Counted from the stretch's first letter, positions 6,004 through 53,390 are shown. The stretch: 64,000 nt of DNA from Bdellovibrionales bacterium RIFOXYD12_FULL_39_22 (GCA_001770205.1 MEQL01000025.1:1-64000), one strand, 5' to 3'. Notes: generated by a model from the sequence alone, not told the origin. Numbers and translations are program-made.

Positions 6004-6528
6004 TCAGATAGTCCATGGGAAATACCCCTTTTCTCTCGCTCGTGCAAACATCATTTCGCCGGCCGCTCTAGTATCACCATATTTTTCCATGGCCGCCTGA
6101 TGAAAATTTTCCACGATCAAAGTCCTTCCTAACTGCCGCAATACAGCTATAGGATCGCTAATCAAAAGTGGTCGATGACGTTCAATCCAAATAGGTGCAA
6201 TTTGCGAAGAACAAATGATCTTCGTCTGAGGGCCAAAATAGCGCTGAAAGCGTAAGGCCTCATACGGCTCCAATGCTATTAATAAATCCAGCTCTCTTTC
6301 TAAAATTTGCGACGAATAGTATTCATAATCTACAGTTTTAGAAAAAAATATTCTCATTGTTGAATATACTGAACCAAGTGTCTGTGCTCCACCTTTAAAA
6401 ATGGCCCCTTGAACCGAAAAACTACTTTTCTGAGATAGAGTCCAAATGGATTTAGTGAGACGAGAAATTCCCTGGCCACCGATTCCAGTAATAATTATGT
6501 TAAATGGTGGTTGATAGTGCAGTGACAT
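6004..6528 (-). CDS. iorB: Indolepyruvate:ferredoxin oxidoreductase beta subunit-like (POR gamma family)
   Basis: NIIITGIGGQG, GGAQTLGSVYSTMRI, DLLIALEPYEALRF. ATG overlaps the iorA stop (TGATG). C-terminus appears short. Confidence 0.8.
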   Translation of the reverse strand: MSLHYQPPFNIIITGIGGQGISRLTKSIWTLSQKSSFSVQGAIFKGGAQTLGSVYSTMRIFFSKTVDYEYYSSQILERELDLLIALEPYEALRFQRYFGPQTKIICSSQIAPIWIERHRPLLISDPIAVLRQLGRTLIVENFHQAAMEKYGDTRAAGEMMFARAREKGYFPWTI

Positions 6529-8384
6529 CAAACATCCTTTGCCAGTAATGCTTGCGCCAGTTTCATCCAATTAACATTGGCCGAGATGGCCCCGTTTGGG
6601 CAGACTTGCTTACAAACGCGGCATCGTTTGCAACGATCTAAATCAATGGAAAAATGTGGTAAGTTCGTTGTCTTTTTAACTATGGCCGGACATTGAAGCT
6701 CTCTATAACACAAAGTACAATCCTGGCATTTGGAACTATTAATTGTAGGAGAAAAGGCCTCTCTCCTTTTTATTGCCTGTGCAGGCAACATCTTCGAACA
6801 AGCACCTTTAACCCACAAAACCCGAACTCCTCGAGAGTGCACTAACTGCTTTAATTTTTTTTCATACGAAGATAAATCAAAAGCATCAACAGTAAATAAT
6901 TTGTCTACTCCCAAAGCATAAAGAAGCTTTTCATGGTCTAGCTTAGGATTAGAAGAAAGAGAGGCCTGGTGTCCAGTCATTGCAATATATTCATTATCAA
7001 AAACAAGGTGTAAAAGATCTACTTTGTTATGTACAGCAGAGGCAATTCCGCTAATACCCGCATGAAAAAAACTAGCATCTCCCCCTGTAGAGATGACTAA
7101 TTGAGAAGAGGCCATTGCCGTAATTCCCTGAGAAATTCCTACTCCGGCATTCATACACAAAAGCCAATCAGCACGCTGAGGAGGAAGAGAGGAGCAACCA
7201 ATATCTCCACCAATAACCCAACGATCATCTCCTTGTTCTGCCCGCAAAACCTTCTCGATGATATAAAAAGAGGCCCGATGAGGACAACCTTCACAAAAAG
7301 TTCCCAGTCGTTCTGGCACTTCTATCTCATGAGGTGCTTGCAAATTTTCTCCCATTTGTCTTATTGCAATATCAAATTTATCAGCAAAAAAATTGTAGAT
7401 CGAAGAAAAAGAGATTTCGCCGTAAGGCGTAAAAAAGATTTTTCCCTCCATGGCCGTTTGAATTTTTCCATAAAACAAAGATTTTAAACTATTTTCTAAA
7501 AATCCTCCCTGATCTTCAATCACTACCACTTCTTTTTTATTGGCAAAAAAAGGCAACAACTTTGCTTCATTTAGAGGATACGTCATATCAATATTGAGTA
7601 GATGAACTTTCTCACTTAGCTCTAATCTTAAAATAGACTCATAACTATGTCCAAAAGTGGCACCACGAGTAATAACTCCTATCGCGCTATTAGCATTAAA
7701 AAACTCTTTACCAAAAAAAACGTCCTGAGAGATTGTCTCCATTTTAGCAAATAATTTTTTACTGTTTGCTACACATTGAGCACCAACATTAATATAGCTG
7801 GCCGGATTTTTTATAAATTTAAACTCTCTCTGTGCTTGTCCAATTTTGCTTTCATCCGTCAACAGACTATCATGATTAAAACAAAGCCTAGTTGGTAAAA
7901 AGACAACTACGGCCGTGGCATATTTTTCTGACAATAAAAAGGCCTCTTTGGTTTGATAATAAATCTGCGAAATAGTAGTTGGTTCAAAAAGTGGTAAATT
8001 AATTTGGGGTAAATACCAATGAGGATCTTCCTCTCCAGTACTACATTGTGCCCCAGGATCGGTACCTACAACTAATAACATTCCTCCCCTAATACCAGTG
8101 TATCCAATATAGTTTAGCGGATCAGCGGCAATATTCATCCCGACATGCTTCATAACTACCATCGAGCGCGCGCCTGACAGACTTGCACCTAGGGCCGAAA
8201 GAGTGGCCACATGCTCATTGATGGCATCATTAAAAACCACACTGCCTTTGTATTTACTATTTAGTTCATAAATGGCCGGAGCAATCTTATTAACCGGTGA
8301 GCCGGGATAGTGGGAAAAATAATTAAGTCCCATCTCCATGGCCGCCCAAGCAACCGCCTCATTTCCATTAATAATATTTCTCAC
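6528..8384 (-). CDS. iorA: Indolepyruvate:ferredoxin oxidoreductase alpha subunit
   Basis: GNEAVA, YPGSP, NEHVA, MKHVGMNIAADP, FCEGCPHR, GDIGC, TPP-binding GDASFFHAG...DN..IAMTGHQ, C-terminal 2x[4Fe-4S] ferredoxin. Confidence 0.9.
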   Translation of the reverse strand: MRNIINGNEAVAWAAMEMGLNYFSHYPGSPVNKIAPAIYELNSKYKGSVVFNDAINEHVATLSALGASLSGARSMVVMKHVGMNIAADPLNYIGYTGIRGGMLLVVGTDPGAQCSTGEEDPHWYLPQINLPLFEPTTISQIYYQTKEAFLLSEKYATAVVVFLPTRLCFNHDSLLTDESKIGQAQREFKFIKNPASYINVGAQCVANSKKLFAKMETISQDVFFGKEFFNANSAIGVITRGATFGHSYESILRLELSEKVHLLNIDMTYPLNEAKLLPFFANKKEVVVIEDQGGFLENSLKSLFYGKIQTAMEGKIFFTPYGEISFSSIYNFFADKFDIAIRQMGENLQAPHEIEVPERLGTFCEGCPHRASFYIIEKVLRAEQGDDRWVIGGDIGCSSLPPQRADWLLCMNAGVGISQGITAMASSQLVISTGGDASFFHAGISGIASAVHNKVDLLHLVFDNEYIAMTGHQASLSSNPKLDHEKLLYALGVDKLFTVDAFDLSSYEKKLKQLVHSRGVRVLWVKGACSKMLPAQAIKRREAFSPTINSSKCQDCTLCYRELQCPAIVKKTTNLPHFSIDLDRCKRCRVCKQVCPNGAISANVNWMKLAQALLAKDV

Positions 8385-9492
8385 CCATCACCTGCGCTAA
8401 TTGTTCCTGTGGAATAGATTTTATATCACCCTTGAACTTGGGAGCATTGATATTTAAAATGGCCAATGCTTGACACTGTTTCACACAGGCCAAACATTCA
8501 CAACACTCCAGCTCTAATTGAAAGGATGGATACCCGTTATCTTCTTCGCCAATTATTCCTTTAGGGCAAATATTTTGACAGGCGTGACACTTAGTACATC
8601 GCTCACTAACTAACTTTGGCCCAAAATAACTCTTATTATTAAATGTACAAAGCCAATTTGCCACTGAAGATTTAAAGTGAATCGTTGATCCTAAAATATC
8701 CATACAAATTAAAATAGTAAAAACAGAATTGGCCAATAAATATATCGGAAGCATATGGATGAAGGCCGGGTAACTTTCTACATACCACCACAAAAAAAAG
8801 TAAGAAGGAATACTAATCACCATAAGATTGTTGGTTGCCCATTTAAAGGGCAAAAAATCCAAAAAAGGTGTTAGTAAAATTGTTATGGTGTAGGCAATGG
8901 TAATAAGAAAAACATCATGATTATATTGCATGCCTAAAAAAAGCGCAAAAATAATATAATACTTTAGATAAGACAAAAAATAAGTCCCTACCATTCCAAT
9001 GGCCAATTCCATCCGATCAAAAAATGGCATGCGCAAAATATGCATCCGCTCTGAAATAGATCTTTTATCTTGCGCCAGATATTCTGGGAGATCGTAAAAA
9101 CTGGCCGGCCCCCACTCTCCATTAAAACCACTTCGTTGCCGCAAAATCTGCAAATCAACTCCCACTGCTGCCAACTGTGGCAAAATGACTCTTCTGTGTG
9201 ATACCAATTCATCCAACTTATAAGTAAAAATAGCATCTACGACTTTATTTTCATTAAAATCTCCGGCACCTGCGGCACACCAAACATTAACTCCCGCCGA
9301 ATCCACTACCAATATGTAGCAATTCAAATTTTTTAATATCCTTTTCAGCTTAAAAACTGTTAGAAAATAGTTGCCGGAAATTAGCACCAAAGAATTTTTA
9401 TCTGGATGGCCTAAGGCCACGATTCCCGGGGGATACCTCAAGGGAAAATATCTAAATAGTATCGAACAACAATACCAAAAATAATCTTTCAA
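8368..9492 (-). CDS. HgcAB-like fusion: CdhD-type corrinoid-binding domain + transmembrane helices + 2x[4Fe-4S] ferredoxin
   Basis: PPGIVALGHP..S.VLISGNY, cap helix GVNVWCAAGAGDF, HRRVILPQLAAVGV, GF...WGP, several hydrophobic helices, then CTKCHACQNICP and CCECLACVKQC. Confidence 0.9.
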   Translation of the reverse strand: MKDYFWYCCSILFRYFPLRYPPGIVALGHPDKNSLVLISGNYFLTVFKLKRILKNLNCYILVVDSAGVNVWCAAGAGDFNENKVVDAIFTYKLDELVSHRRVILPQLAAVGVDLQILRQRSGFNGEWGPASFYDLPEYLAQDKRSISERMHILRMPFFDRMELAIGMVGTYFLSYLKYYIIFALFLGMQYNHDVFLITIAYTITILLTPFLDFLPFKWATNNLMVISIPSYFFLWWYVESYPAFIHMLPIYLLANSVFTILICMDILGSTIHFKSSVANWLCTFNNKSYFGPKLVSERCTKCHACQNICPKGIIGEEDNGYPSFQLELECCECLACVKQCQALAILNINAPKFKGDIKSIPQEQLAQVMGEKYY

Positions 9493-9508
9493 TGAAAAAA
9501 ATCTCCAT

Positions 9509-10165
9509 TCATGGCCTTTTGCTCACTTTTAAAAAGACTATTCCCCCTCCCATATTTTTCTTTTCATCTATTTTCAGATTAAGCTTTGCAAGATCGTCAG
9601 GAAGATTTTTTACAGGACGAATCACTGTTCTCGTAAAAAGAAAATTTGGAATAAAAGAGATACAAAAAAGCAAGTTATAAAAAAAGGCCTTAATCTTTAC
9701 ATCTGGCCAAAGCTCATCATTTATCAGAATAAATCCCTTATCTTTAAGATGATCTCTCATCTGCATTAAAGTTCTAAATCGTAAATCATCAATTAGTTCT
9801 CCCAACATCAGCGAGGCAATAATCACATCAAATTTCTCTCCATTTAAAACTTTATCCATACTGGCCGATCCCGCATTAACAATTTTAATATTGGAAGATA
9901 GTGATTGCTTTTTAGCGCGAGAACGCAAAATATCTAACATCTGTATCGAACTATCCAAAGCAACAACTTGTGCCCCTTTTTTAGCACAACCAAGTGCAAC
10001 TTTTCCACTGCCACATCCAACATCTAAAACACTATCACCGACACTAACTTGCTCAATTAATTTTTCAAGAGAGCGGCCATATCGACCTAGCGAAATTATA
10101 TTCATAAACTTTTCGTAATGAAAAGGTGCCTGCTCCACGAATTTCATCAAACCATAAATTAGCAC
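9509..10165 (-). CDS. Class I SAM-dependent methyltransferase, resembling corrinoid protein-associated methyltransferase (CpaM-like)
   Basis: VLDVGCGSG motif I. N-terminus YGLMKFVEQAPFHYEK..IISLG resembles the CpaM family as I recall it. Directly upstream of the HgcAB-like gene. Confidence 0.75.
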   Translation of the reverse strand: MLIYGLMKFVEQAPFHYEKFMNIISLGRYGRSLEKLIEQVSVGDSVLDVGCGSGKVALGCAKKGAQVVALDSSIQMLDILRSRAKKQSLSSNIKIVNAGSASMDKVLNGEKFDVIIASLMLGELIDDLRFRTLMQMRDHLKDKGFILINDELWPDVKIKAFFYNLLFCISFIPNFLFTRTVIRPVKNLPDDLAKLNLKIDEKKNMGGGIVFLKVSKRP

Positions 10166-10168
10166 CCA

Positions 10169-11371
10169 TTACCCCCATAGCAAATATTTTAGATGACGAG
10201 CCTCGATTTTTTTTTGCAAAATCCTGTAACGTTTTTCTATGATATCCGAAGAAATTTTATTCGGATAGGTTGACGCTAAAGTATGCGGACGATCTTCATA
10301 CTTAAAAACCATGTACATCCCAAACTTTGCCTGCTCCACTACTTCTACCGATTTATCAAAATCCTCCTCCGTCTCACCAGGGAAACCGACAATGATATTA
10401 GAGCTAATCATGCCTACCTTTGTTTTGGTAATTACCTCATTGACAGTGTCTACCACCTCTCTTGCAGAATAAAAGCGCTTCATCTGCGCCAATACTTGAT
10501 CTGAACCAGACTGAATGGGAGAGCAAAATGCCTTTATCCGGCCAGTAGCAAAAATTGGCATCAACTTATCTTTCAACTTCACCAACCAAAAAGGATCGAT
10601 GTAGCGAAGATTAACAACAAAATTAGAATCAACGGCCAAAATTGCGGATAAAAGATCTGCCAAATCTAATCCAATATCAAATCCATATCCCCCTTGATCT
10701 TCTCCGGTTAGAGCAATCTCTCGCTGCCCTTGTGCCACCCCTTTTCGCACTTGGGACAAAATTAAATCAAGTGGATCACTTTTTATTGGGCCATGGGCAT
10801 GCTTAATTCCACAATAACTACATTTTCCTGTACATCCCATCGCACAGCGAATTAAAAACCATTTCTCTGAAGGCACAGTATATAAAATTTTAGGAACACG
10901 AACTCCGGGAATAAAGGACAATTTCTCAAAACGCTTACGAGTACGGAAGTAGCTATGTATTTTGGGATCAGTATTATATTCATCCTCTGAAACAAAATGG
11001 TTGTCAAACTCCTCAATCTTTTTTTCTACACTCACCACTTTATTAAAATCGGTCATCTCTTGAATGCGTATATATTTTCCTGCAAAAATCTTGTCTACGG
11101 CCGTGCGATTAATCTGGGGCAGACATCCGGTTAGAACTACTTCGGCATCACTTTTTTTACCCTTCGTATACTCTTCTATTTTTTGTAATTCATGATTCTC
11201 CTCACTTTGAGAAAAACCGCAGGTAGAAACAATGATAAAATCTGCTTCTTTAAAATTACTCGTCACCTCCCAATCATTGGCACTATACCAGCGTTTTAGC
11301 ATATTTAAATTCATTGCGTTCTCTGTACAAGGATGATTAGTAGAGTGAAAAAATACTTTTTTTGTTATCAT
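10169..11371 (-). CDS. Methylthiotransferase-like (MiaB/RimO family) radical SAM enzyme lacking TRAM
   Basis: UPF0004-like N-domain with 3 Cys (PCTEN, STCGF, TGCLP), CTGKCSYC, PIQSGSDQVL, IIVGFPGETEEDF. Ends right after the radical SAM core. Confidence 0.85.
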   Translation of the reverse strand: MITKKVFFHSTNHPCTENAMNLNMLKRWYSANDWEVTSNFKEADFIIVSTCGFSQSEENHELQKIEEYTKGKKSDAEVVLTGCLPQINRTAVDKIFAGKYIRIQEMTDFNKVVSVEKKIEEFDNHFVSEDEYNTDPKIHSYFRTRKRFEKLSFIPGVRVPKILYTVPSEKWFLIRCAMGCTGKCSYCGIKHAHGPIKSDPLDLILSQVRKGVAQGQREIALTGEDQGGYGFDIGLDLADLLSAILAVDSNFVVNLRYIDPFWLVKLKDKLMPIFATGRIKAFCSPIQSGSDQVLAQMKRFYSAREVVDTVNEVITKTKVGMISSNIIVGFPGETEEDFDKSVEVVEQAKFGMYMVFKYEDRPHTLASTYPNKISSDIIEKRYRILQKKIEARHLKYLLWG

Positions 11372-11498
11372 CGTTAATAAACCTTATCCACAAGTATCGT
11401 TATTTTTAAAGCGCCACGAATACATTTATCTTGTTAGGCATAATAAAATTTATTAGACTATTTAACAAGTAAACACTCTATGCAAAGGCCAAAAGAAA

Positions 11499-12122
11499 AT
11501 GTCACAACAAAAATCTCTAACGGAATGGTCTGGTTTTCGCGGCACCTTCAACTCTTGGTTTTTTAGCACTGCCGCCCGTCGACTAATTGAGAAAACAGTT
11601 TTTGGAAATTATTGGCCAACCTTTTACACCCAGCTTGAAAAAAATATAAAAACAGGCAATGAGACTATTTTGGACGTCGCCGCAGGATCGGGCAATTTTA
11701 GTATTCCCATTGCCCGCAGACTGCAAAATGGAAAAGTTATTTGTATCGATCGCTCCAAAGAGATGTGTCACTACCTAGCAAAGCGGGCCACTAAAGAGGC
11801 CCTTCTTTCCCGCATAGAAATTATTAATCACGATATTTTAGAAGATGGCCCCCAAGACAACTCGATTGATTGGGCCATTTCTGGAAATTTTATGCACGAA
11901 TGCTCTCGCCCTGAGAAAATATTTAGCAAAATGTATCAAACATTAAGGCCCGGCGGCACCATCTTGGTTGTCGATTTCCGTGATTGGCATGGATATGATG
12001 GCGGTGATTCTCATGGCCCATTTCACCCCGATGAATTTGGCCAACTATTTACCAATGCTAATTTTAAAAATATTAACATTCAAACCAAGCGACACTTCGT
12101 CATTGGAACTGCCAACAAATAG
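11499..12122 (+). CDS. Class I SAM-dependent methyltransferase (UbiE-like fold)
   Basis: ILDVAAGSG, IDRS.EM, LRPGGTILVVDF. Confidence 0.85.
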   Translation: MSQQKSLTEWSGFRGTFNSWFFSTAARRLIEKTVFGNYWPTFYTQLEKNIKTGNETILDVAAGSGNFSIPIARRLQNGKVICIDRSKEMCHYLAKRATKEALLSRIEIINHDILEDGPQDNSIDWAISGNFMHECSRPEKIFSKMYQTLRPGGTILVVDFRDWHGYDGGDSHGPFHPDEFGQLFTNANFKNINIQTKRHFVIGTANK

Positions 12123-12138
12123 CTTCTTAGGGTGCATT

Positions 12139-13389
12139 ATGAAAACTTTTTGTGTTGTTCCGTCCGCCCATGCCTGTACCGAACTAGTAGTAGAAACCAA
12201 TCAACTGCGCACTTATATGAAGGCCGCCAATTTTGAAGAGATTGATAATAAGTTAAAAAGCGATGCTGAGTATATTTTGGTGGCAACCTGTGCTTTCAAT
12301 CAAGAGTTTGAAAATGAGGCCTTCGCTAATATTACCAGTGCCATAAAGCAAAAACGCGCCGATGCTAAAGTGATCGTCTCTGGATGTTATCCAAAAATTG
12401 CACCACTTACCTATAAAAGTTTTGCCAATGAGACGGTAGACATTCCACCACTTAATATGAAAAAAATTGAAACAATTGTTCCGGCAAAAGTGGCCTTTAA
12501 TGAAACTATCCCGAATACTGTAAATCTTCATGAATATTTAAAAGATAGAGTCTTTGCCAAAGGAATAAAACTAAAAAATTTCTGTCGCACTTTAAATAAA
12601 ATTTTACCCTTTAATACGGAACCCAAATGGCTAGACTCTCTTCCCATGACAGATTGGTATTTTATTCAAGGCGGTAATGGCTGCTTAGGAAAATGTACTT
12701 TTTGTGCCATAAAACATGCGCGCGGAGGTATTCAAAGTGTGGGAATTGATCAAATCATTCCTCAGGTAGAAAAAGCAGTACGCCGAGGATATCAAACCAT
12801 CTCTTTTGCCGCCACTGATATGGGATGCTGGGGGGCCGAACGTGGCCAAACTCTGGCCGACCTTTTAAAAGAAGTTATCAAAGTAAAAGGCGACTTTGTA
12901 GTTGATATGCACTACTTTGAGCCAGAATGGCTGATTAAAAATTTAGGTGAGCTTACCCCTGTTTTTCAATCAGGGAAGATAAAATCTTTTGGAACTCCCG
13001 TGCAATCTGGCTCTAATAAAATTTTAGAAAAAATGGGGCGAGCATACAAAATTGAAGAGTTTATTTCCGCTGTAAATTTTGTCTTAGAAAAAACTAAAGT
13101 ACGCAGCTTAAACTCCATTATAATGGTGGGCTTTCCTTCTGAAACAGTAGAAGACTATTTGGCCTCCTATAATCTTATTAACAAGGTAAAAGTATCTTAC
13201 TGGTGCCTTTTAAAATATGAGGGACGCTATAAGGTGGAAAGTGAATTGTTGCCTGATAAGGTTTCTGAAGAGATTAAAAATGGCCGACTAGAACGGATTA
13301 AACTAAAGGCCATGCTACGCAACTATGTAGGATTACCAGATCTTCTTACTGAAAAAATGGTCTCTGCCAAATATGGCCCAGTTCGTTAA
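12139..13389 (+). CDS. Second methylthiotransferase-like radical SAM enzyme lacking TRAM
   Basis: 3 N-domain Cys (ACTEL, ATCAF, SGCYP), CLGKCTFC, PVQSGSNKIL, IMVGFPSET. Start reassigned to ATG 12139, after the methyltransferase stop. Confidence 0.85.
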   Translation: MKTFCVVPSAHACTELVVETNQLRTYMKAANFEEIDNKLKSDAEYILVATCAFNQEFENEAFANITSAIKQKRADAKVIVSGCYPKIAPLTYKSFANETVDIPPLNMKKIETIVPAKVAFNETIPNTVNLHEYLKDRVFAKGIKLKNFCRTLNKILPFNTEPKWLDSLPMTDWYFIQGGNGCLGKCTFCAIKHARGGIQSVGIDQIIPQVEKAVRRGYQTISFAATDMGCWGAERGQTLADLLKEVIKVKGDFVVDMHYFEPEWLIKNLGELTPVFQSGKIKSFGTPVQSGSNKILEKMGRAYKIEEFISAVNFVLEKTKVRSLNSIIMVGFPSETVEDYLASYNLINKVKVSYWCLLKYEGRYKVESELLPDKVSEEIKNGRLERIKLKAMLRNYVGLPDLLTEKMVSAKYGPVR

Positions 13390-13491: not shown

Positions 13492-15051
13492 ATGGCAAAA
13501 AAATGGGGATCTTTAATTGTCCTGACATTTCTGTTTTTACATAATGTTTTTGCAATCAGCACAAAGGCCACCGCCGAATCTACTAGCGAACTTAAAGCTC
13601 CGGCAATTACCTTTAAAATTTTAACTGACGTAACCATGGCACCCCTTTTAAAGCAGGCCGCTGAGCGGGCCAAACGCCGGGCCGTCGCCTCTGATCAACT
13701 AATCGATCCAACGAAAATGAGCAAAGAATATACTTCCTTTCGTGATAGATTTATCAACGCCAAATCTCCTGATGATGTGGCCCGCGAAGTGGCATTCTTA
13801 GAAAAAGGTTATAGTGATTTCCCTCTGGACTTACAATATTTTGCTGCGCAGATGATCCCCATTAAGGCCTTTCGTGGAATAGTCTACCGCATGGTTCCCT
13901 TGGCAGAAAAAGAGAACATCACGCACAGTGCTCTTTTAACTACAGTGCAAGGTTTTGTTGAACAAATGGGCATTTATATCCCCAAGGATCACGCCAAAGC
14001 ACTCTTAGATTATCTTTTGTCTCCCTATGTAACTGAGGACAATAGCATTGTTACACAAATAAAGTCCTCAGCAGATCTACAACGTTATGTGGCACAAGAA
14101 GTTATTCCTATGACCTCCAACGCCATTTTTCGCCTGCAAGAAATCCAAATTGGCAACAATGACGTTATTTGGGACAATACTATAATTTACGGTAACACGG
14201 CATTCCTGGACGATATAAGACGCTATAGAATAATTGCTGATGTCGATCGTTATGCCGCTATTGCCCATCTTCATTCTGCCTTAGCGCACTTGTGCTTTTT
14301 AGATGCTTATAACCTAGATCGCCTCTCCGAGTTACTTAAAGATGAGGGTAAATTAGTGGGATTAGATGGCTTCTTAGCAAAAAAAATCGAAGGCGCCACC
14401 TCACTGGATCGAGCGGAGGTCATGCAAAAAGAGCGCTATGAAAAACTATTTGTCACGACTAACTATGCAAATACCAAAGAGTGGATGGCACTCTCTTTTA
14501 CCAACTTGGAACAAAGTATTCGTAATATTCGTCTAGTATGGAACGAGACTAAAAATCGTCCGGCCGAAGAGTTTGCCATTTTGGATTCTACCAAAGTTAT
14601 TCCTTGGGAAAAAGATATTGAAATTAATCTTTCTATTGCCGAGGTCATCATGGAAGGAAAGGCCCAAATTCGTAGTGCCGTTTCAGGAGAGAAGTTGACA
14701 ATTAATCTGCCTGGTTTTTTCGAAAATCCACCCAAAGATTTGAAAAAACTTTTACCAATCGTTCCGGCAAATTGGAAAAAAACTGATCGCTACGCATATT
14801 TAAAGCTTCCTCCTAACGTTAAAAATCCTAATAACCGTAGTTATGATGATTTAGAAGGAAATCCTGGGACAAACAAGAAGGATTTTCAGTATCGAAACTA
14901 CTATCATGGCCAGGCCAAAGAGTGGAATTTGGACGCTTACAAAACTCTCTTTCCAGAGCTGGCCAGCGGAAAAGATATTAAAAAGGCCGTACGCATTTTA
15001 AGCGAGACTTGGAATAGTTCTCAGGTAACGGCCATCTCTTTCATGCAATAA
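13492..15051 (+). CDS. Secreted hypothetical protein (519 aa, helical)
   Basis: AGGAGG RBS, signal peptide ending VFA; no recognisable motif. Confidence 0.7.
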   Translation: MAKKWGSLIVLTFLFLHNVFAISTKATAESTSELKAPAITFKILTDVTMAPLLKQAAERAKRRAVASDQLIDPTKMSKEYTSFRDRFINAKSPDDVAREVAFLEKGYSDFPLDLQYFAAQMIPIKAFRGIVYRMVPLAEKENITHSALLTTVQGFVEQMGIYIPKDHAKALLDYLLSPYVTEDNSIVTQIKSSADLQRYVAQEVIPMTSNAIFRLQEIQIGNNDVIWDNTIIYGNTAFLDDIRRYRIIADVDRYAAIAHLHSALAHLCFLDAYNLDRLSELLKDEGKLVGLDGFLAKKIEGATSLDRAEVMQKERYEKLFVTTNYANTKEWMALSFTNLEQSIRNIRLVWNETKNRPAEEFAILDSTKVIPWEKDIEINLSIAEVIMEGKAQIRSAVSGEKLTINLPGFFENPPKDLKKLLPIVPANWKKTDRYAYLKLPPNVKNPNNRSYDDLEGNPGTNKKDFQYRNYYHGQAKEWNLDAYKTLFPELASGKDIKKAVRILSETWNSSQVTAISFMQ

Positions 15052-15067
15052 TCTTTTTTTTTACTTA

Positions 15068-17242
15068 ATGAATCTATTAGAACGTTTTGAAGCTCTGCTA
15101 CTTGCTCTTTACCAGGCAAGTAGCAGACATCCTCGCTTGATAGTTCTATTTTTTATACTCTTGTCTTTTTTCTTTTCTTTTTTTATTCCTAAGCTTTTTT
15201 TTCATATTAACACTGAAAATCTTGTAGATAAAAATTCTCTCTCTAGTAACCGATTGGAAAAATTGCAACAAGACTTTCCGACAAAAAATTCACTCTACCT
15301 TTTCTTTCACTCTCCCACTCCCTTTGTGGGAAACACTCTATGCACCATAGATAGTTGGTTAAAGGCACAAGGCCGCCACAATACTCACATCAGTGCCATT
15401 CGCTCTCCATTTTTTTTGCGACGCCCCCAGGTTAACAATGAACTGCTTTTTTATCCGTACCTAATACCTCCTCCTTGCCTGAAAGAAAATAGAGATAAGG
15501 TATATGACTTTTCTCTGATTGATCAATCGCCTTGGCGACAAATTCTTACTACTAAGGCCGGAGATTTTTTTGGAGTAGAAATTTTATTTCATGATACTCC
15601 CGGCGGCAGTCAATTTGGCAAATTTGATCCAGCAATTTTACGTGCTTTCAAACATGAGTTTGATTCATTTATCCGAAACACCCTTCCAACCATCAAAACT
15701 GATTTTTTAGGCCACATGGGATATTTCCATTACGGCATAGAGGGGTTAGCGCAAACTAATCTTTTAAATGTTGCTCTTATTCTTCTTCTAATCTTTTTAT
15801 GTAAATTGGCCTTTGGAACCTATAAGTCCGGCCTTCTTCTTACTTTGACCTTAGTAATGATGGGAGGAGTATTATATGGCGCCATGGCCCTCTTTGGTAG
15901 TCCGGTGGATACTCTTAATGCTGGACTATTTCTCATCGTCACCATCGCAGTTGCTGAAGATTTTTTTTTCCTCTCTGTCTGGCAATTACAACATCCGAAA
16001 GATCACGAAGATCTTTTTGTAAAATTTCTTGTTCCCTGTTTTTTTACCTCCTTCACCACCATTATAGGCTTTGGCTCTCTTTGCTTAACAGACCTTACCA
16101 TTATTCAACGCTTCGGGTTTTGGGCGGCCTTTGGGGCCCTTTGGGAATGGCTTTTAATTTTCTTTTTTCTGCCGGCCTTTTTACAACTCTTTCCCAACTG
16201 GAAAATTTGGACAGATCAGCGAAAAGCAAGATTTTATAAATTTTCAAAAAGAATCCTTTTACGCCAACTTCCCTCGCCTTTAATAAGGCCACTCATAATA
16301 TTAGGCTGCTTTTCACTTTTTTTACTCTTTCATTTAAAGATTGCAGATGCTCCTTTTAAAATCTTCCCCCAAGATCATCCCTTTCGAGCAGGTATTTTAC
16401 GGATTCAAGAAAAAAGTGGATGGCAAGTATCATTTGATATGATCTTCGAAAATAAAGACGATCAAGTTTTTAATGAAATGATTATGCAAAAATTGGCCAA
16501 TGATCCACTAATTAGCTTTGTGCAAAATCCCTACGAAATTGAACGCTACTACACCCAAGATTTTCCTCCTCTGACTCAAAAACTTATTTTACGTGAATAT
16601 TCTTGGACGACAGATTACAAACGCCATAAATCTTCTCAAGGCCAGCTCCATTCTACGATCTTTGGCCGAGAAAATAGCATTGAAGATTTTTCTCAGTTAA
16701 TTGCTAAAATTAACACCTGGTGTGAGAATGGCAAAAGATGCTATCCCACCGGAGATGCGATCTCTTTTGCAGAAATTGCCATGCAAATTCCAAAAGTTTT
16801 AATTGAAAGTTTTTTTTATAGCGTCTTTTTTGTTACGGCCATATTAGTTTTCATTCTGGCACAAACTGGACATGGAAGTGTCCGAAACATTTTTGCCACT
16901 CTGGTCTCTTCATTGTGGGGGCCCTCTATCATGATTTTAATTTTTTGGGCCTTTGGCGTCTCTTTAAATTTTATCACCTGCACCTTTGCCAGTGTTTTGG
17001 TGGGACTAACTGGAGATAATGCCGTTCAATTTATTTTTGCGGCCCGCAGAAAAAATATCTCGGTGGGAATTGTGGAACAAGGAGTCAGTTCTATTCATAT
17101 TGCCATTATAACCTTTTTGGCCAGCAGTGTATTTTTATTTTCCTATTTTGAAGCAATGCGGACAATGGGCCTTTTAACCGCCACCGGCATCGTGATTATG
17201 AATTTTGGGGATATTTGGCCTTTAAAAAAGCTACTCTCTTAA
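15068..17242 (+). CDS. MMPL/RND-superfamily membrane transporter
   Basis: Two repeats of TM + large loop + about 5 TMs; IAVAEDFFF and GLTGDNAVQF motifs; TTIIGFGSL. Confidence 0.8.
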   Translation: MNLLERFEALLLALYQASSRHPRLIVLFFILLSFFFSFFIPKLFFHINTENLVDKNSLSSNRLEKLQQDFPTKNSLYLFFHSPTPFVGNTLCTIDSWLKAQGRHNTHISAIRSPFFLRRPQVNNELLFYPYLIPPPCLKENRDKVYDFSLIDQSPWRQILTTKAGDFFGVEILFHDTPGGSQFGKFDPAILRAFKHEFDSFIRNTLPTIKTDFLGHMGYFHYGIEGLAQTNLLNVALILLLIFLCKLAFGTYKSGLLLTLTLVMMGGVLYGAMALFGSPVDTLNAGLFLIVTIAVAEDFFFLSVWQLQHPKDHEDLFVKFLVPCFFTSFTTIIGFGSLCLTDLTIIQRFGFWAAFGALWEWLLIFFFLPAFLQLFPNWKIWTDQRKARFYKFSKRILLRQLPSPLIRPLIILGCFSLFLLFHLKIADAPFKIFPQDHPFRAGILRIQEKSGWQVSFDMIFENKDDQVFNEMIMQKLANDPLISFVQNPYEIERYYTQDFPPLTQKLILREYSWTTDYKRHKSSQGQLHSTIFGRENSIEDFSQLIAKINTWCENGKRCYPTGDAISFAEIAMQIPKVLIESFFYSVFFVTAILVFILAQTGHGSVRNIFATLVSSLWGPSIMILIFWAFGVSLNFITCTFASVLVGLTGDNAVQFIFAARRKNISVGIVEQGVSSIHIAIITFLASSVFLFSYFEAMRTMGLLTATGIVIMNFGDIWPLKKLLS

Positions 17243-17566: not shown

Positions 17567-18646
17567 CTAGCTCAAAACAATTGGAAGTTTATGGCCACAT
17601 CTGGTGCAGCAGCTCTCTGCAGAAAATGTCTCTTTAATGTAGGTAGATAGGCCGAAACGTTCAATTAAAAGTTCATGGCATTGTGGACAATAGGTATTTA
17701 GGCCAATGGCCTCAAAGGCATTGCCGACATAGGGATACATTACTCCCTTATCTAAAGCTCTATTTCTAGCACTCATCACATCTTCCAGTGGAGTTTGCTT
17801 TACATCCATATATTTGTAGTCTGGATGGAAACGTGTGAAATGAATTGGCGTAGTCGGTGCCAATTCTGATAAAATAAAATTAATCATCTTATCGTAATTA
17901 TCATTATTATTTGTAAGATCAGTCACAACTAAATTACTGATCTCATAGTGTATTCCGCTGCGATGAATTTGATTGGCATTATCCAAAACCGGCCGCAACC
18001 ATCCTTTTGTAAACTTAGTATAATATCCCTCATCCATGGCCTTTATAGAAATAGCAAATACATCAATAACCTCGACCAACATTTTGACCGCTTCTGGTGT
18101 TAGGAAAAATGCCGATTTAAAAAGATTTTTTAGCCCTCTTTTTTTTGCTTCCTTGGCAGTATCAATCACAAATTCAAACCATACTGCCGGATCGTTGTAT
18201 GTCCAGCTAAGAATTGGAATATTGTCTTCTAGTGCTTTTTCTATTACTTGCGCACTTGTGTACTCTTGAATGGTGTGCTCTGGCGTATATTGAAATTGTG
18301 AGTAGGTCCAATTTTGACAATAGTCACAATCTAAATTACACCCAAAATTCCCTAGAGATAAAATCTTGGCCCCAGGCATGTAATGAAAAACGGCCTCGGC
18401 CTCAATACGCTCTACTGTGACATGAGTGGCCTTGCCATAATTTTGAGTATAGAGAATTCCTTCAATATTTTTTCGAACTTTGCAAAAACCAACATGGCCT
18501 TTCGCAATTTTACACTTTCTTGGACAAACCAAACACTGCACTTTGTTATCGGCCAACTTATCATACAAATACGCCTCTTTTCTGGTATCGTTCCACACTT
18601 TATGTAAATCGTAACGAACGACATCTTCACTATAAGGATTGCTCAA
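17567..18646 (-). CDS. amrS: AmmeMemoRadiSam-system-type radical SAM enzyme (PflA-like)
   Basis: N-terminal CLVCPRKC...FCKVR, GCNLDCDYCQNW, WTYNDP, HFTRFHPDYK, C-terminal TYCPQC..LIER zinc ribbon. TTG start with AAGGAG RBS. Confidence 0.8.
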   Translation of the reverse strand: MSNPYSEDVVRYDLHKVWNDTRKEAYLYDKLADNKVQCLVCPRKCKIAKGHVGFCKVRKNIEGILYTQNYGKATHVTVERIEAEAVFHYMPGAKILSLGNFGCNLDCDYCQNWTYSQFQYTPEHTIQEYTSAQVIEKALEDNIPILSWTYNDPAVWFEFVIDTAKEAKKRGLKNLFKSAFFLTPEAVKMLVEVIDVFAISIKAMDEGYYTKFTKGWLRPVLDNANQIHRSGIHYEISNLVVTDLTNNNDNYDKMINFILSELAPTTPIHFTRFHPDYKYMDVKQTPLEDVMSARNRALDKGVMYPYVGNAFEAIGLNTYCPQCHELLIERFGLSTYIKETFSAESCCTRCGHKLPIVLS

Positions 18647-26332: not shown

Positions 26333-26950
26333 ATGAATGAAACACAGCACGCATCAAGTGAAAACTTCTCTCTGACTGACAAAATGGGCATCTTTATCGG
26401 CACCATCATTTTTCTTTTAATAATGCCACTCACCCTTTTAATTTCTTCCCTCCCTATAGCCATATTAAAAAATATAATTTCCAACAGTGTGATTATCATG
26501 TTTGGCGGTTTTTTTCTTATGCTCATTGGTGGGGCCGTATCACTGGTTATGTCACTTATTTTCGGGATCATCATCTCTTATACAATGAACAAAATTGATA
26601 AATTTATCAATGTCTCAGAATTTTTCTTCCGCTTAGTAAGAAATGATCGTCCATTCCAAAATAGCTCTTTTTCTAACACCGGCGCCTTGATTGGTGGAGC
26701 ACTCTCCATGATTGGACTAATTATCAAAGGTGGCGAACCCATTCACACTGTAACTGCCAAAATTGAACACCTCTTCCCGGCCCCATTAATATTGAGCTTA
26801 GGTGATATCGTGACTTTAAACTTTGCTCATGGATATGCGGTGGCCACTGGCTTTCTAACTATTGGTTTACTATTCCTTATCGCTGGTGTAGCATCTGGCA
26901 GTATCACAGGTATCATTTTCGATAGATTATCTCACAAAAAACATGAGTAG
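26333..26950 (+). CDS. Hypothetical integral membrane protein
   Basis: About 4-5 hydrophobic segments; AAGGAG RBS; overlaps the cytochrome gene. Confidence 0.7.
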   Translation: MNETQHASSENFSLTDKMGIFIGTIIFLLIMPLTLLISSLPIAILKNIISNSVIIMFGGFFLMLIGGAVSLVMSLIFGIIISYTMNKIDKFINVSEFFFRLVRNDRPFQNSSFSNTGALIGGALSMIGLIIKGGEPIHTVTAKIEHLFPAPLILSLGDIVTLNFAHGYAVATGFLTIGLLFLIAGVASGSITGIIFDRLSHKKHE

Positions 26951-28442
26951 AGGGGAAATGGTTTCATCAAGAGCGGTTTTTTTATTCGTTACAATAATAA
27001 CAACACTCATTGGCCTGCGCAGTAATAGTGCATGGGCCAATGATCTTCAACTGGCCGATAACGAAGTAGTAAAACTTTTTTCGGAAATGCCAAAAGAAGT
27101 TCACCTGGCCGCTAGTTGTCTTGCTTGCCACAAAGAAAAACTGAGTGAATTAGAACAAAGCATCCACGGCAAAGCGGGATTGTTATCTCAACACCCTCCA
27201 GGGGCAATCTGCCTTACCTGCCATGAAATCAACCATCGCTCTAATAAACCCATCAGCATTGAAAAAAATAATTTGGATTTTTCTCATGCGCTCCCAAAGG
27301 AGCGGGCATGTATGAAGTGTCATGGCTCGGAAGCTCTGGCAGCTCAGTTTGGTTTTTCGCCTCACGTTCCTAGCGAATTCGAAGAGTCTATGCATTACCG
27401 CAAAGTAACAATTGGAGAAAAGAAGGCCCCTCTTTGCTTTGACTGTCATGGAGCACATAACGTACAAAGCATGCAGGCGCCAAATTCTTTAAAAAATAGT
27501 CCGGCAGAACGCGCCAAAGTATGTTCAAAATGTCATCGCGGTTCCAATGAAACATTTGCCATGACCTTTGACCATCGACCTACCACTTGGGAAGAAAAAC
27601 CGCTGCAATACGCCGTCATTGCTATGTTTAAAACGCTAACGCTGGGAACCTTCGTGGGCCTGGGCCTCTTCATGTTATTAGATATTTCCAGTCTTATTCG
27701 CTGTATTGTTTTTAGAAAAAAAATGGGACTGCACGCTCATCACAAACCAAAAAAAGTGGAATATGTCGAACGACTTACCGCCTCACAACGTTGGCAACAT
27801 TTTTTTATGCTCTCTAGTGTTCTCACATTAGTGGTGACCGGCTGGCCGCTTTTTTCTCCCGAATCAGAAACTTCTATCGCTGTTATGAATTTATTAGGCG
27901 GTGCCGGAACGGTGGCCATTATCCACCGCACCGCTGGCCTGGTAATGATCGCGGACTTCCTATACCATCTCTATTACCTCTTCACACTCTTTCGCAAAGG
28001 TGGAAAAATTTTGGCCTTCCCAATGCTACCCACGCCTAAAGACGTTATAGATGCTTGGGGGTTAATCCTCTTTTTCTTTGGCCTACGAAAAGATAAACCG
28101 GCCTTCAAGCAATTTGCTTTTTTTGAAAAATTTGATTATTGGGCAGTATTTTGGGGTGTGGCCATGATGGGTTTTAGTGGACTTATGTTGATGTTTCCCA
28201 CCGTTGTAACTCGTGTTTTACCCTCTTGGTCTGTTAGCTTGTCTGAAATTATTCATGCCGATGAATCCTTACTTGCCGGAGTAGTACTAATTATCTGGCA
28301 CTTCTATAACGTCCACTTTAAACCTGGAATTTTCCCAATGAATTGGGCCTGGTTGTCAGGGAAAATGCCAAAACATCACTACGAAGAAGAGCACGCCGCT
28401 CACGTGGAAGAGTTGAAAAAAGAAGGAAAGTGGAAAGAATAA
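26943..28442 (+). CDS. Pentaheme cytochrome c fused to a cytochrome b (FdnI/Ni-hydrogenase b-type) membrane domain; CbcL-like quinol oxidoreductase
   Basis: CLACH, CLTCH, CMKCH, CFDCH, CSKCH; then QRWQH, IIHRTAG, EKFDYWAVFWG, IIHADE, IWHFYNVH. True start may be ATG 26958. Confidence 0.88.
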   Translation: MSRGEMVSSRAVFLFVTIITTLIGLRSNSAWANDLQLADNEVVKLFSEMPKEVHLAASCLACHKEKLSELEQSIHGKAGLLSQHPPGAICLTCHEINHRSNKPISIEKNNLDFSHALPKERACMKCHGSEALAAQFGFSPHVPSEFEESMHYRKVTIGEKKAPLCFDCHGAHNVQSMQAPNSLKNSPAERAKVCSKCHRGSNETFAMTFDHRPTTWEEKPLQYAVIAMFKTLTLGTFVGLGLFMLLDISSLIRCIVFRKKMGLHAHHKPKKVEYVERLTASQRWQHFFMLSSVLTLVVTGWPLFSPESETSIAVMNLLGGAGTVAIIHRTAGLVMIADFLYHLYYLFTLFRKGGKILAFPMLPTPKDVIDAWGLILFFFGLRKDKPAFKQFAFFEKFDYWAVFWGVAMMGFSGLMLMFPTVVTRVLPSWSVSLSEIIHADESLLAGVVLIIWHFYNVHFKPGIFPMNWAWLSGKMPKHHYEEEHAAHVEELKKEGKWKE

Positions 28443-31797: not shown

Positions 31798-32586
31798 CTA
31801 TTTGAAAATCTCCGAGGCCTTGTCCTCCGCTTGATCCTCTTTAATAAATAAAAAGCTGTTTTTTACATCACGCCCATGACAATCAACGCATCCCCACCCC
31901 GGCCGCATTAAACGTTTACCACCCTCATGGCAGCGCTCACACTTGCCAGCATAGGTTCTGGCCACCTTGTTATGCCATCCTAGGCGAAAATATTTTTCAT
32001 GTGGAATATCTACGTGGCAAGCATCACAGCTAGGCAGCTTCGAGGCCCCATATTTTTTGGCAAACTCTCCATCTTTTTTGTGACAATCCAAGCAGGATAT
32101 TTTAACCACTTTCTTCTTCTCTTCTTGCACATATGATTGGCCATGATTTTTGGCCAATGCCCAAGACTTCGGATGTGGATAATTATGACATTTAAAGCAG
32201 ACCGAAGCACTATTGATTCCCTTGCTACCACCATCCAATCGGTGACAATCTATGCACATCTGCGGTTTTTTCAAATATGCTTTTCCATGCGAACTCCCTT
32301 TCGCAAACTGCTTTTCATGTGGATAGGCCTGATGACAGCGATCACAACTTTTTTTGGAAGGCCCGCCTTTAAAATCTGTTCCGTGACACTTCTGGCAAAG
32401 TTCTTTATTTTTTTGAAAACACTCTCCACCGTGATCTTTGGTTGATCTGAATTTTTCGGTGTGAGAGTAACAGTTTTTGCTCTCTTTTATCATTGAGAAC
32501 ATCTCCTCTTGGGCCATTAGTCCGCCGGCCAGCAAAAACGAGATTACTAATAGAAACTTGGGGGTAAAATTGTATTTTGTTTTCAT
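31798..32586 (-). CDS. Periplasmic octaheme cytochrome c
   Basis: Eight CxxCH motifs (CQKCH, CDRCH, CIDCH, CFKCH, CLDCH, CDACH, CERCH, CVDCH); signal peptide from ATG 32586. Confidence 0.88.
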   Translation of the reverse strand: MKTKYNFTPKFLLVISFLLAGGLMAQEEMFSMIKESKNCYSHTEKFRSTKDHGGECFQKNKELCQKCHGTDFKGGPSKKSCDRCHQAYPHEKQFAKGSSHGKAYLKKPQMCIDCHRLDGGSKGINSASVCFKCHNYPHPKSWALAKNHGQSYVQEEKKKVVKISCLDCHKKDGEFAKKYGASKLPSCDACHVDIPHEKYFRLGWHNKVARTYAGKCERCHEGGKRLMRPGWGCVDCHGRDVKNSFLFIKEDQAEDKASEIFK

Positions 32587-32722
32587 GACACTGTTTTCGT
32601 AAAAAAATGTCTGTTTCTTGAGAACTTTATTTGCCAATCAAATTTTCGTATGAAACACTTTTTGTCAGGAAAAATTTAACACAATAGCAAACTATTATTG
32701 TCAGTATTAAAAAGGAGATTGA

Positions 32723-33733: not shown

Positions 33734-34327
33734 ATGTCTAGCAAAGTGATTAAAACCATTTCATTTTATTTGCTAGCTATAATTATTGCAGCAATGGGCA
33801 AACTCTTTGCTTATGAACCAGGTTTAGGAATAGAGTCTTGCGTTGGTTGCCATCCCACCAAAAACTATGGAGGTAACGGCCATGGTGGAATCGCTAAAAA
33901 TTGCTTTAACTGTCATGGAAAAAGTCGCTTTGATACCCCGTACCGTTATAATTTGAATGATGAAACAAATACCATATGCTACAGCTGTCACGAGCAATTT
34001 GACCCGGCCTTTGGCACCTATGGAAATCCTGCTGGTGGCCATCCAGTGGCCAAACATCCGGTAGCAGGAGGTAATGATATGCTCTATCCGGAAAAGGAAT
34101 TTTCCTGCGCTTCCTGCCATAATCCTCACGGTTCTCCGATGAGAGATATGTTTCGATATGAATCTCGCCCTGGCGAAGATCGCTGCAAGATCTGTCATAA
34201 TAAAATTCTCTATGGTAATGGCAACCGCCGGCAACCGCCCCCTTGGGAAATCACCGATGGCAAAGTAGATTTCAAGGATATTCCGAAGCGTCCACCTCGT
34301 GTACTAGGAAAAAAACGACTTTTGTAA
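33734..34327 (+). CDS. Periplasmic pentaheme cytochrome c (paired-CxxCH type)
   Basis: CVGCH, CFNCH, CYSCH, CASCHNPHGS, CKICH; signal peptide; GGAGG RBS. Confidence 0.88.
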   Translation: MSSKVIKTISFYLLAIIIAAMGKLFAYEPGLGIESCVGCHPTKNYGGNGHGGIAKNCFNCHGKSRFDTPYRYNLNDETNTICYSCHEQFDPAFGTYGNPAGGHPVAKHPVAGGNDMLYPEKEFSCASCHNPHGSPMRDMFRYESRPGEDRCKICHNKILYGNGNRRQPPPWEITDGKVDFKDIPKRPPRVLGKKRLL

Positions 34328-53367: not shown

Positions 53368-53390
53368 AATATAAAAGAAAGGAGAATAAA

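Follow-up and report, generated by a model that had tools for sequence, protein, structure and literature searches.

The stretch of DNA considered in this work (hereafter the window) comprises 64,000 nucleotides of Bdellovibrionales bacterium RIFOXYD12_FULL_39_22 (GCA_001770205.1 MEQL01000025.1:1-64000), and the region of interest, positions 6004 to 13389, is a cluster of seven genes in which an HgcAB-like corrinoid protein is accompanied by two S-adenosylmethionine (SAM)-dependent methyltransferases, an indolepyruvate:ferredoxin oxidoreductase (IOR)-type enzyme and two radical SAM proteins. Five of these genes are located on the minus strand in the order (from 5’ to 3’) rSAM1, cpaM, hgcAB-like, iorA and iorB. 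The first of these, rSAM1 (10169..11371), specifies a protein with UPF0004 and Radical_SAM domains and no TRAM domain. It is followed by cpaM (9509..10165), encoding a class I SAM-dependent methyltransferase of the corrinoid-protein-associated family (NF043040), and by the gene for an HgcAB-like fusion (8368..9492; NF043039) which joins a corrinoid domain, membrane helices and a ferredoxin domain. The last two genes specify the subunits of a 2-oxoacid:ferredoxin oxidoreductase, i.e. an iorA-like subunit (6528..8384) with POR_N and TPP-binding domains and a C-terminal 2x[4Fe-4S] ferredoxin domain, and an iorB-like subunit (6004..6528) recognized by PF01558 and IorB models at scores below their cut-offs. 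Across a divergent intergenic region of 127 bp read from the sequence (11372..11498), the plus strand carries MT2 (11499..12122), a UbiE/MenG-like class I SAM methyltransferase with a Methyltransf_25 domain and a distant relationship to CpaM, and rSAM2 (12139..13389), the TRAM-less paralogous partner of rSAM1, equally composed of UPF0004 and Radical_SAM domains.

As determined from the sequence, rSAM1 and cpaM are separated by 3 nt and cpaM and hgcAB by 16 nt, hgcAB and iorA (start codon GTG) overlap by 17 nt, and iorA and iorB share the sequence TGATG with an overlap of 1 nt, provided that iorB begins at ATG 6528. These four minus-strand junctions (+3, +16, -17 and -1 nt) have the appearance of translationally coupled genes. 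The extent of iorB is most likely 6004-6528 (174 aa) rather than one based on a TTG start at 6570, and rSAM2 most likely starts at ATG 12139 (416 aa), 16 nt past the MT2 stop codon, the alternative frame with a TTG start at 11968 running over MT2. A first-pass annotation of this DNA had proposed a tight minus-strand operon with gaps of at most 16 bp or overlaps, and a divergent MTase2-rSAM2 unit across the 127-bp gap; all seven genes were recovered on the strands it gave, with family assignments made by profile scores, and both units were confirmed with the start of rSAM2 moved to 12139. The 127-bp gap contains a single promoter-like site (minus strand, 11468-11440), which constitutes no evidence of function because such sites are no commoner in the region than in shuffled sequences (28 observed versus 34.7 expected). 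Promoter and terminator scans both yielded counts at or below shuffle expectation and thereby do not delimit the transcription units, and base composition showed no GC anomaly setting the cluster apart as foreign. The arrangement is nevertheless beyond chance, since the gene set recurs in other genomes.

The HgcAB-like fusion reaches 307.8 bits against NF043039, above the cut-off of 285, and 158.8 bits against the HgcA model NF040863, below the cut-off of 275. Its N-terminal domain matches the corrinoid domain of the large subunits of corrinoid iron-sulfur proteins (CFeSP; 4djd_C, E 1.3e-15), and a single chain contains the cap-helix cysteine, the membrane domain and two CX2CX2CX3C motifs (their cysteines including C299/C302/C305/C309). 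In an alignment of 33 sequences, residues N69, W71 and C72 of the cap-helix motif, which reads N-(V/I)-W-C-A and includes Cys72, were invariant, as were the eight cysteines of the ferredoxin domain. An AlphaFold2 model (pLDDT 93.1, pTM 0.89) presents an alpha/beta domain, followed by four long helices (157-186, 191-213, 219-240 and 242-269) and a ferredoxin fold; given this even number of membrane helices, both soluble domains would be located on the same side of the membrane.

CpaM scores 205 bits against NF043040 (cut-off 180), and its gene lies 16 nt upstream of the hgcAB-like gene. The generality of this association was assessed in 80 HgcA-like loci, with one genome per species and relatives found by an alignment-based search: in 79 of the 80 a cpaM was found joined to the hgcA-like gene, either as a separate gene directly upstream on the same strand (54 loci) or within the same open frame (25 loci), and a contig end interrupts the remaining one. 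Among the 120 homologues listed, 12 combine a methyltransferase domain and a CdhD domain in a protein of approximately 540 aa. These natural CpaM-HgcA fusions (12 of the 120 listed; 25 of 80 loci) lend support, at the level of sequence, to the earlier proposal that the corrinoid is loaded by a SAM methyltransferase. Both families are already named in NCBIfam, so that the pairing of CpaM with the HgcAB-like protein belongs to curated knowledge.

A number of further arrangements were observed around cpaM-hgcAB in more distant loci. CpaM and HgcA form one protein in, among others, Chloroflexota loci L030, L036, L054, L060, L061, L068 and L080, and the neighbours that recur in this one-protein clade are different ones, namely a TetR regulator, a separate ferredoxin of small size (2x4Fe-4S), an ABC-2 transporter and a patatin-like phospholipase. 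In a sister clade of the HgcAB-like tree (L022, L024, L045, L076 and L081, the last from a cultured Bradyrhizobium isolate that is a possible experimental handle), SPASM and HemN-like radical SAM genes precede cpaM-hgcAB, lying some 2-9 kb ahead of hgcAB; in L022, L024 and L045 cpaM-hgcAB is also preceded by a third one, encoding about 512 aa, and a ThiF/alpha-beta-hydrolase fusion is conserved nearby. Finally, a giant protein of about 1300 aa with a radical SAM domain is encoded directly after hgcAB in three loci (L013:7576-11463, L014:8392-12342 and L015:11111-15016).

With respect to the oxidoreductase, the iorA-like subunit matches PF01855, PF02775 and Fer4 and scores 395 bits against TIGR03336, below the cut-off of 650.9. 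The iorB-like subunit obtains 46.8-53.6 bits on the five best IorB equivalog models (cut-offs 205-274), with 51.8-53.6 versus 205.8-237 bits for TIGR03334 and NF0053xx, and matches PF01558 weakly (24.5 versus 27.4 bits), its nearest relative (108 bits) being found in genome G042. The IOR domain architecture, consisting of POR_N, TPP_enzyme_C, a 2x4Fe-4S tail and a POR-type beta subunit, is present. In a FastTree phylogeny of HgcA-like proteins the window and 14 fetched loci form a clade of 15 rows with support 100 (the closest clade), and iorA and/or iorB abut cpaM-hgcAB in 12 of these 14 loci, the two exceptions (L012 and L016) having a matching IorA elsewhere in the assembly or at a contig end. 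A quick IQ-TREE analysis of 16 IorA sequences yielded a branch (SH-aLRT 100) that separates the ten encoded beside cpaM-hgcAB (that of the window and nine others) from six further IorA paralogues of the same genomes, including the copy on contig C35 of the genome from which the window derives (the source genome). The IorA of the window has a long branch (2.9), and its placement agrees with the scores, being 322-409 bits versus cpaM-hgcAB-linked IorAs and 163 bits versus the second IorA of the source genome; the most similar IorA is that of G042 (47-48% identity). Rather than grouping with stand-alone catabolic IORs, an outcome that the first-pass annotation had named as speaking against a link with the other genes, the window IorA is separated with SH-aLRT 100, and the clade to which it belongs, found only beside cpaM-hgcAB, is by its sequence a dedicated IOR. 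In five loci of another HgcA-like clade the opposite strand carries a PorA-type oxidoreductase at a distance of 1.4-3.3 kb, which gives a weak hint that a low-potential electron source, rather than indolepyruvate itself, is what counts.

Two side observations concern these iorA genes. In G042 an in-frame TAG splits the iorA frame (L114/L117, G042:C15:12552-14178) into pieces scoring 290 and 233 bits. Furthermore, in part of the clade iorA is always preceded by a DUF5981 protein (resembling the C-terminal part of methylenetetrahydrofolate reductase; L011:5632-6803, L017:5394-6613, L020:5499-6785 and L127:348-1528) and a protein of about 215 aa without a family, with FabZ just upstream in several cases; a homologue of either protein was not detectable in the source genome.

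The two radical SAM proteins score 235.6 (rSAM1) and 199.8 bits (rSAM2) against TIGR00089, both below the cut-off of 251, and neither matches the TRAM model PF01938. The TIGR00089 alignment stops at profile position 361 of 429, short of TRAM, and the nearest structural neighbours of rSAM1, being RimO (4jc0) and MiaB (7mjv), are likewise matched up to a point before that domain (4jc0 residue 354 of 438). Both proteins retain the three UPF0004-domain cysteines of the auxiliary cluster and the CxxxCxxC motif: in rSAM1, C51, C83, C180, C184 and C187 do not vary among 32 orthologues and C15 shows a conservation of at least 90%, and C13, C51, C83, C182, C186 and C189 of rSAM2 are conserved in 15 of 15 clade members. 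The set of rSAM1 orthologues is sharply bounded, with about 49 clusters at 47-61% identity and the next match at 36%; in ten of these clusters the length of the longest contig equals that of an HgcAB-like match. In a quick tree of 42 MiaB-like proteins, the rSAM1 clade (20 rows, support 99) and the rSAM2/partner clade (15 rows, support 100) are sisters and stand apart from the three housekeeping methylthiotransferases of the source genome, the other, longer MiaB/RimO-type genes of which are located on contigs C39, C9 and C57. A metagenome scan for rSAM1 relatives recovered 16 loci, mostly on contigs of 1.5-4.5 kb and therefore too short for a reverse census; the tandem of rSAM1 and its partner was found in 8 of 14 of these loci (copies of the window left out) and in 10 genomes. 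MT2 matches Methyltransf_25 with 65.4 bits and the CpaM model with 45.3 bits, below 180, and its best named matches are UbiE/MenG-type quinone methyltransferases at sub-cut-off scores of 46.7-47.9 bits. An MT2 orthologue (221 bits) adjoins an rSAM2 orthologue (593 bits) in genome G048.

Whole-genome searches retrieved an rSAM1 orthologue of at least 619 bits in 13 of the 14 closest-clade genomes, usually with its tandem partner. Eleven genomes whose HgcAB-like genes are more distant yielded none, their best scores not exceeding 142 bits. In a sample of 81 genomes from the one phylum that holds most carriers, 13 had both the fusion and rSAM1, one the fusion only, one rSAM1 only and 66 neither, and rSAM1 was also absent from eight genomes of this sample with weaker HgcA-type matches (153-194 bits). 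Further weight comes from two other lineages, those of G042 and of the window; in G042 the genes rSAM1, cpaM and hgcAB are adjacent, with gaps of 7 and 8 nt. The earlier proposal allowed for the possibility that these genes never co-occur in other genomes, and the opposite was found: the set recurs elsewhere. Taken together, we consider it very probable that the cluster genes belong together. The best reading of their distribution is that the cluster was acquired horizontally as a package, because the fusion, the rSAM pair and a B12-dependent radical SAM (B12-rSAM) gene on contig C12 are present only in the source genome among 41 relatives, and because the window pairs with G042 in the HgcAB-like tree and in both rSAM trees.

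The usual setting of the rSAM pair consists of a hexapeptide-repeat protein, a FabF-like ketosynthase (KS), rSAM1 and its partner, an order found in L094, L123-L126 and L132 and partially in L093, L095, L099 and L127; B12-rSAM enzymes, FabG, acyl carrier protein (ACP) and RND-like proteins are often located near the pair. The association extends to the corrinoid genes in L020, where a single strand carries DUF5981, a family-less protein, iorA, iorB, cpaM, hgcAB, the hexapeptide protein, ACP and FabG, and continues with a glyoxalase, a B12-rSAM, rSAM1, its partner and a second B12-rSAM. In G042 the iorAB orthologue lies within a run composed of an orf519-like gene, FabZ, unk360, KS, FabG, ACP, the hexapeptide protein, an RND-like gene, iorA, iorB and a pyridoxal phosphate (PLP) enzyme, and this run is collinear with a cluster on contig C12 of the source genome. 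According to the best reading of this synteny, the window would hold the half of a system that is concerned with corrinoid and radical chemistry, the other half, which builds the acyl chain, being located elsewhere in the source genome, on C12. Because the rSAM pair follows a hexapeptide protein and a FabF-like KS, and because the iorAB of G042 lies within a FabZ-KS-FabG-ACP cluster, the context is more indicative of a substrate of the acyl-ACP or lipid-like kind than of a metalloid. The first-pass annotation had left the substrate as a small molecule, lipid or metalloid; the ACP/KS context favours the acyl or lipid-like option and disfavours the metalloid. Its view of the cluster as one pathway is upheld by the co-occurrence, the IorA clade and the CpaM-HgcA fusions, with the correction that the window would be only a part and the acyl half would reside on C12. 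A PLP enzyme of the cystathionine/methionine gamma-lyase family (501 bits) is common to the acyl halves (L107:8640-9782 on C12 of the source genome; L121:5430-6641 in G042), and it is speculation that this enzyme serves as a source of sulfur or methanethiol.

We therefore propose, with a probability of roughly 0.55, that the genes at 6004-13389, probably together with those at 13492-17242 described below, are a compact, horizontally acquired part of a larger anoxic system for the tailoring of an ACP-bound, lipid-like molecule. The gene content, the conserved residues and the co-occurrence on which this proposal draws are observed, and each chemical step (methylation, methylthiolation or both), the role of the IOR and the product are deduced from them. 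With SAM as donor, CpaM would probably methylate the corrinoid, in its Co(I) form, on the membrane-anchored HgcAB-like protein, and, at about even odds, the fused ferredoxin domain, fed by the dedicated IOR, would keep the corrinoid and the radical SAM clusters reduced, an alternative role of the IOR being the supply of an acyl-CoA primer. The TRAM-less pair, having kept both Fe-S sites, may act on an unreactive acyl-chain carbon, activating it and installing there a sulfur-linked and/or a methyl group. The dedicated ACP, FabF, FabG, FabZ, hexapeptide-repeat protein and B12-rSAM (on C12 in the present case) would build and further modify the chain, and the RND-like transporter would carry the product to the envelope. 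[quoted passage not shown]

Several observations weigh against the assignment to acyl tailoring. The window itself contains neither an ACP nor a ketosynthase, and the link to C12 is based on synteny in other genomes; and rSAM1, rSAM2, IorA and IorB all score below the curated cut-offs of their nearest named families. Of the 14 concordant genomes, 13 belong to one phylum, so that through shared ancestry these counts are not independent events, and the concordance appears incomplete: in L094 (18.6 kb) the rSAM pair was seen and neither cpaM nor hgcAB nor ior within range of it, in G108 rSAM1 was found but not the fusion, and in G054 the fusion but not rSAM1. Other findings would fit a peptide substrate. 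Among the 80 loci, L011 and L026 encode a SPASM radical SAM enzyme after hgcAB and six more have one within 7 kb of it, the best matches of this enzyme being peptide maturases at sub-cut-off scores (PapB 173 bits, nif11-type 175 bits); a SPASM enzyme is also present near the rSAM pair in L130 and L131, some B12-rSAMs best match C-methyltransferases of peptides made by the ribosome and modified after translation (RiPPs; e.g. 82.7 bits in L094), and RimO, the nearest solved structure of rSAM1, acts on a protein. These findings would accord with ribosomal-peptide maturation or protein modification, in which the rSAM pair methylthiolates a residue, in the manner of RimO on S12, the corrinoid module methylates it and the acyl genes add a lipid tail to yield a lipopeptide. 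We regard this explanation as improbable: no precursor-like gene was identified, a SPASM enzyme is absent from the window, the peptide-maturase scores are all sub-cut-off, and it is an ACP-type set that accompanies the rSAM pair most constantly.

The remaining explanations can be weighed on the same evidence. A system for methylation and efflux of a metal or metalloid (Hg, As, Se or Te) would match the one activity known for HgcA, and the cap-helix cysteine and ferredoxin domain are indeed HgcAB features, a transporter is adjacent and MT2 shows weak matches (40 bits) to arsenite methyltransferase models; it is nonetheless very unlikely, considering the score of 158.8 bits against the HgcA cut-off of 275, conserved partners that are ACP, KS and rSAM genes, the absence of mer or ars genes from those seen in the window, and the published statement that tested organisms with fused HgcAB made no methylmercury (PMC10087281, PMC4646819). 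For a membrane quinone or other isoprenoid cofactor as the target of methylthiolation or methylation, a precedent exists in the methylthio-quinones methionaquinone and caldariellaquinone; the best named matches of MT2 are of the UbiE/MenG type, the corrinoid protein is membrane-embedded in its model and menaquinone genes are located in the same window at 50246-54224. Only a slight chance is given to this target, as MT2 was seen next to rSAM2 in just one other genome, and it is ACP and KS genes that recur in related loci, with no prenyltransferase or quinone gene doing so. Lastly, since every protein is derived from a broad family with housekeeping members, the cluster might consist of unrelated neighbours, in which an orphan corrinoid protein and a catabolic IOR happen to lie beside housekeeping methylthiotransferases for tRNA or the ribosome. 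This reading is scarcely tenable and already contradicted: the source genome has three other MiaB/RimO-type genes and a second IorAB pair on C35, and the cluster copies form clades of their own and co-occur across genomes.

The plus-strand unit probably extends beyond rSAM2, through two genes that are putative members of the cluster, to 17242. A gene located 102 nt downstream of rSAM2 encodes a putatively secreted protein of 519 aa (13492..15051) with an N-terminal hydrophobic segment and without a match in Pfam or NCBIfam; it is a probable transporter accessory. Following a further 16 nt, an RND-like membrane protein of the HAE3/HpnN/MMPL type (15068..17242), a probable exporter, is specified, with weak scores of 26.9 bits for HpnN and 23 bits for HAE3, about 12 hydrophobic segments and no match in a PDB sequence search. 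Weak homologues of the latter are encoded inside the related clusters of G042, G048, G049 and G054. In the source genome, contig C57 carries a paralogue of the 519-aa protein (308 bits) beside an RND paralogue, and on C35 a 515-aa protein without a name occupies the same place beside an RND gene. Convergent with the RND-like gene of the window is a radical SAM gene (17567-18646, minus strand), which was considered as a cluster member and rejected, being of the AmmeMemoRadiSam family (TIGR04337, 278 versus 220 bits).

Further loci of the source genome are recorded here as observations in their own right. On C35 (L108:3902-19076) the second IorAB pair, with better IOR-model scores, heads a one-strand cluster comprising an HAE3-type RND gene, two family-less genes, a Tes/TrsS-like radical SAM gene (292 versus 450 bits), a B12-rSAM of 761 aa, FabG, a short-chain dehydrogenase/reductase, FabZ, FabF and ACP, and therefore constitutes a further IOR, radical SAM and fatty-acid cluster. 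On contig C57 (L109:4098-17972) the paralogues of the 519-aa and RND-like proteins are accompanied by a radical SAM gene of the NirJ/SPASM-like type and by four B12-binding radical SAM genes in tandem. Elsewhere in the window (26943-28442, 31798-32637, 33734-34327 and 35296-36756) three multi-haem c-type cytochrome genes and a gene for a B12-binding radical SAM protein with DUF4080 were found, which suggests a low-oxygen lifestyle. The nearest protein families of the source genome are commonest in Bdellovibrionota. The ten sequencing runs listed are all of DNA, from groundwater or soil metagenomes, and eight of these may be the source of the window.

Why microbes carry HgcA-type proteins is a long-standing question, mercury methylation having no evident benefit for the cell, and mercury surveys routinely set fused HgcAB-like genes aside as being of unknown function. 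The present analysis provides the fused HgcAB-like clade with concrete partners, namely CpaM, a dedicated IOR, a TRAM-less MiaB-like pair and a private set of ACP, KS, ketoreductase and dehydratase, and a physiological, non-mercury role thereby becomes testable. If true, acyl tailoring by this system would represent a second kind of radical SAM chemistry on fatty-acyl lipids, and if the split-enzyme version were to hold, the HgcA fold would have a native non-mercury function, with mercury methylation as a side reaction of a lipid-methylating ancestor. For metagenome surveys, the results support leaving the fused HgcAB-like clade out of mercury-methylator counts.

In the literature searched, which did not extend to subscription journals, no paper was found that combines ‘hgcA’ with ‘indolepyruvate’ or ‘methylthiotransferase’, the phrase ‘corrinoid protein-associated methyltransferase’ was absent, and neither an experiment on the CpaM/HgcAB-like pairing nor an IOR, radical SAM or fatty-acid link to HgcA-like proteins or to this pair was encountered. 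The description of the gene set as undescribed, made in the first-pass annotation, therefore holds for the IOR, rSAM and fatty-acid links and not for the CpaM/HgcAB-like pairing, which NCBIfam already covers. Fused HgcAB was found in 2015, and three publications (PMC10083202, PMC10087281, PMC4646819) describe its tested carriers as forming no methylmercury and its function as unknown. Compared with HgcA/HgcB and the fused HgcAB clade (NF043039; the Pyrococcus furiosus fusion of Podar et al. 2015), the window fusion has the same CFeSP-type corrinoid domain, N-x-W-C cap helix, transmembrane domain and 2x[4Fe-4S] part; unlike HgcA/HgcB, it falls below the HgcA cut-off and has genes for CpaM, IOR and radical SAM proteins on its flanks, partners that were not encountered in the papers searched.

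The other components can be compared in the same manner. With MiaB, RimO and MtaB (TIGR00089; 4jc0, 7mjv), rSAM1 and rSAM2 share the three UPF0004 cysteines and the CxxxCxxC radical SAM core, and they differ from these in lacking TRAM, in their sub-cut-off scores and in being a paralogous pair encoded beside FabF-like and hexapeptide-repeat genes rather than alone. IorAB (TIGR03336, TIGR03334) has the same order of POR_N, TPP domain and two 4Fe-4S motifs in the alpha subunit and a POR gamma-like beta subunit, whereas the window subunits score far below the cut-offs (395 versus 650.9 and about 53 versus 205-348 bits) and form a separate clade tied to cpaM-hgcAB. The cluster proposed for anammox ladderanes likewise groups a dedicated ACP, FabZ, FabF and B12-rSAM, whereas the B12-rSAM enzymes of the related clusters reach 68.9-79.2 bits against the ladderane-type model (rSAM_ladder_B12, TIGR04072), below its cut-off of 360, and the accessible part of the source names no HgcA-like, CpaM, IOR or MiaB-like genes for that cluster (PMC13459092). 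As far as that part extends, the same 2026 review of radical SAM enzymes in lipid modification limits the ketoacyl lipids proposed as substrates to ladderanes and the Jaw5 product and does not include MiaB (PMC13459092). A chemical parallel in ingredients is offered by the Class B (cobalamin-dependent) radical SAM methylases, in which a radical SAM cluster and a low-potential reductant are equally combined with a corrinoid that bears a SAM-derived methyl group; in the system described here, by contrast, the corrinoid would be carried by a separate membrane protein with a Cys ligand and loaded by a separate class I methyltransferase, components that may act jointly.

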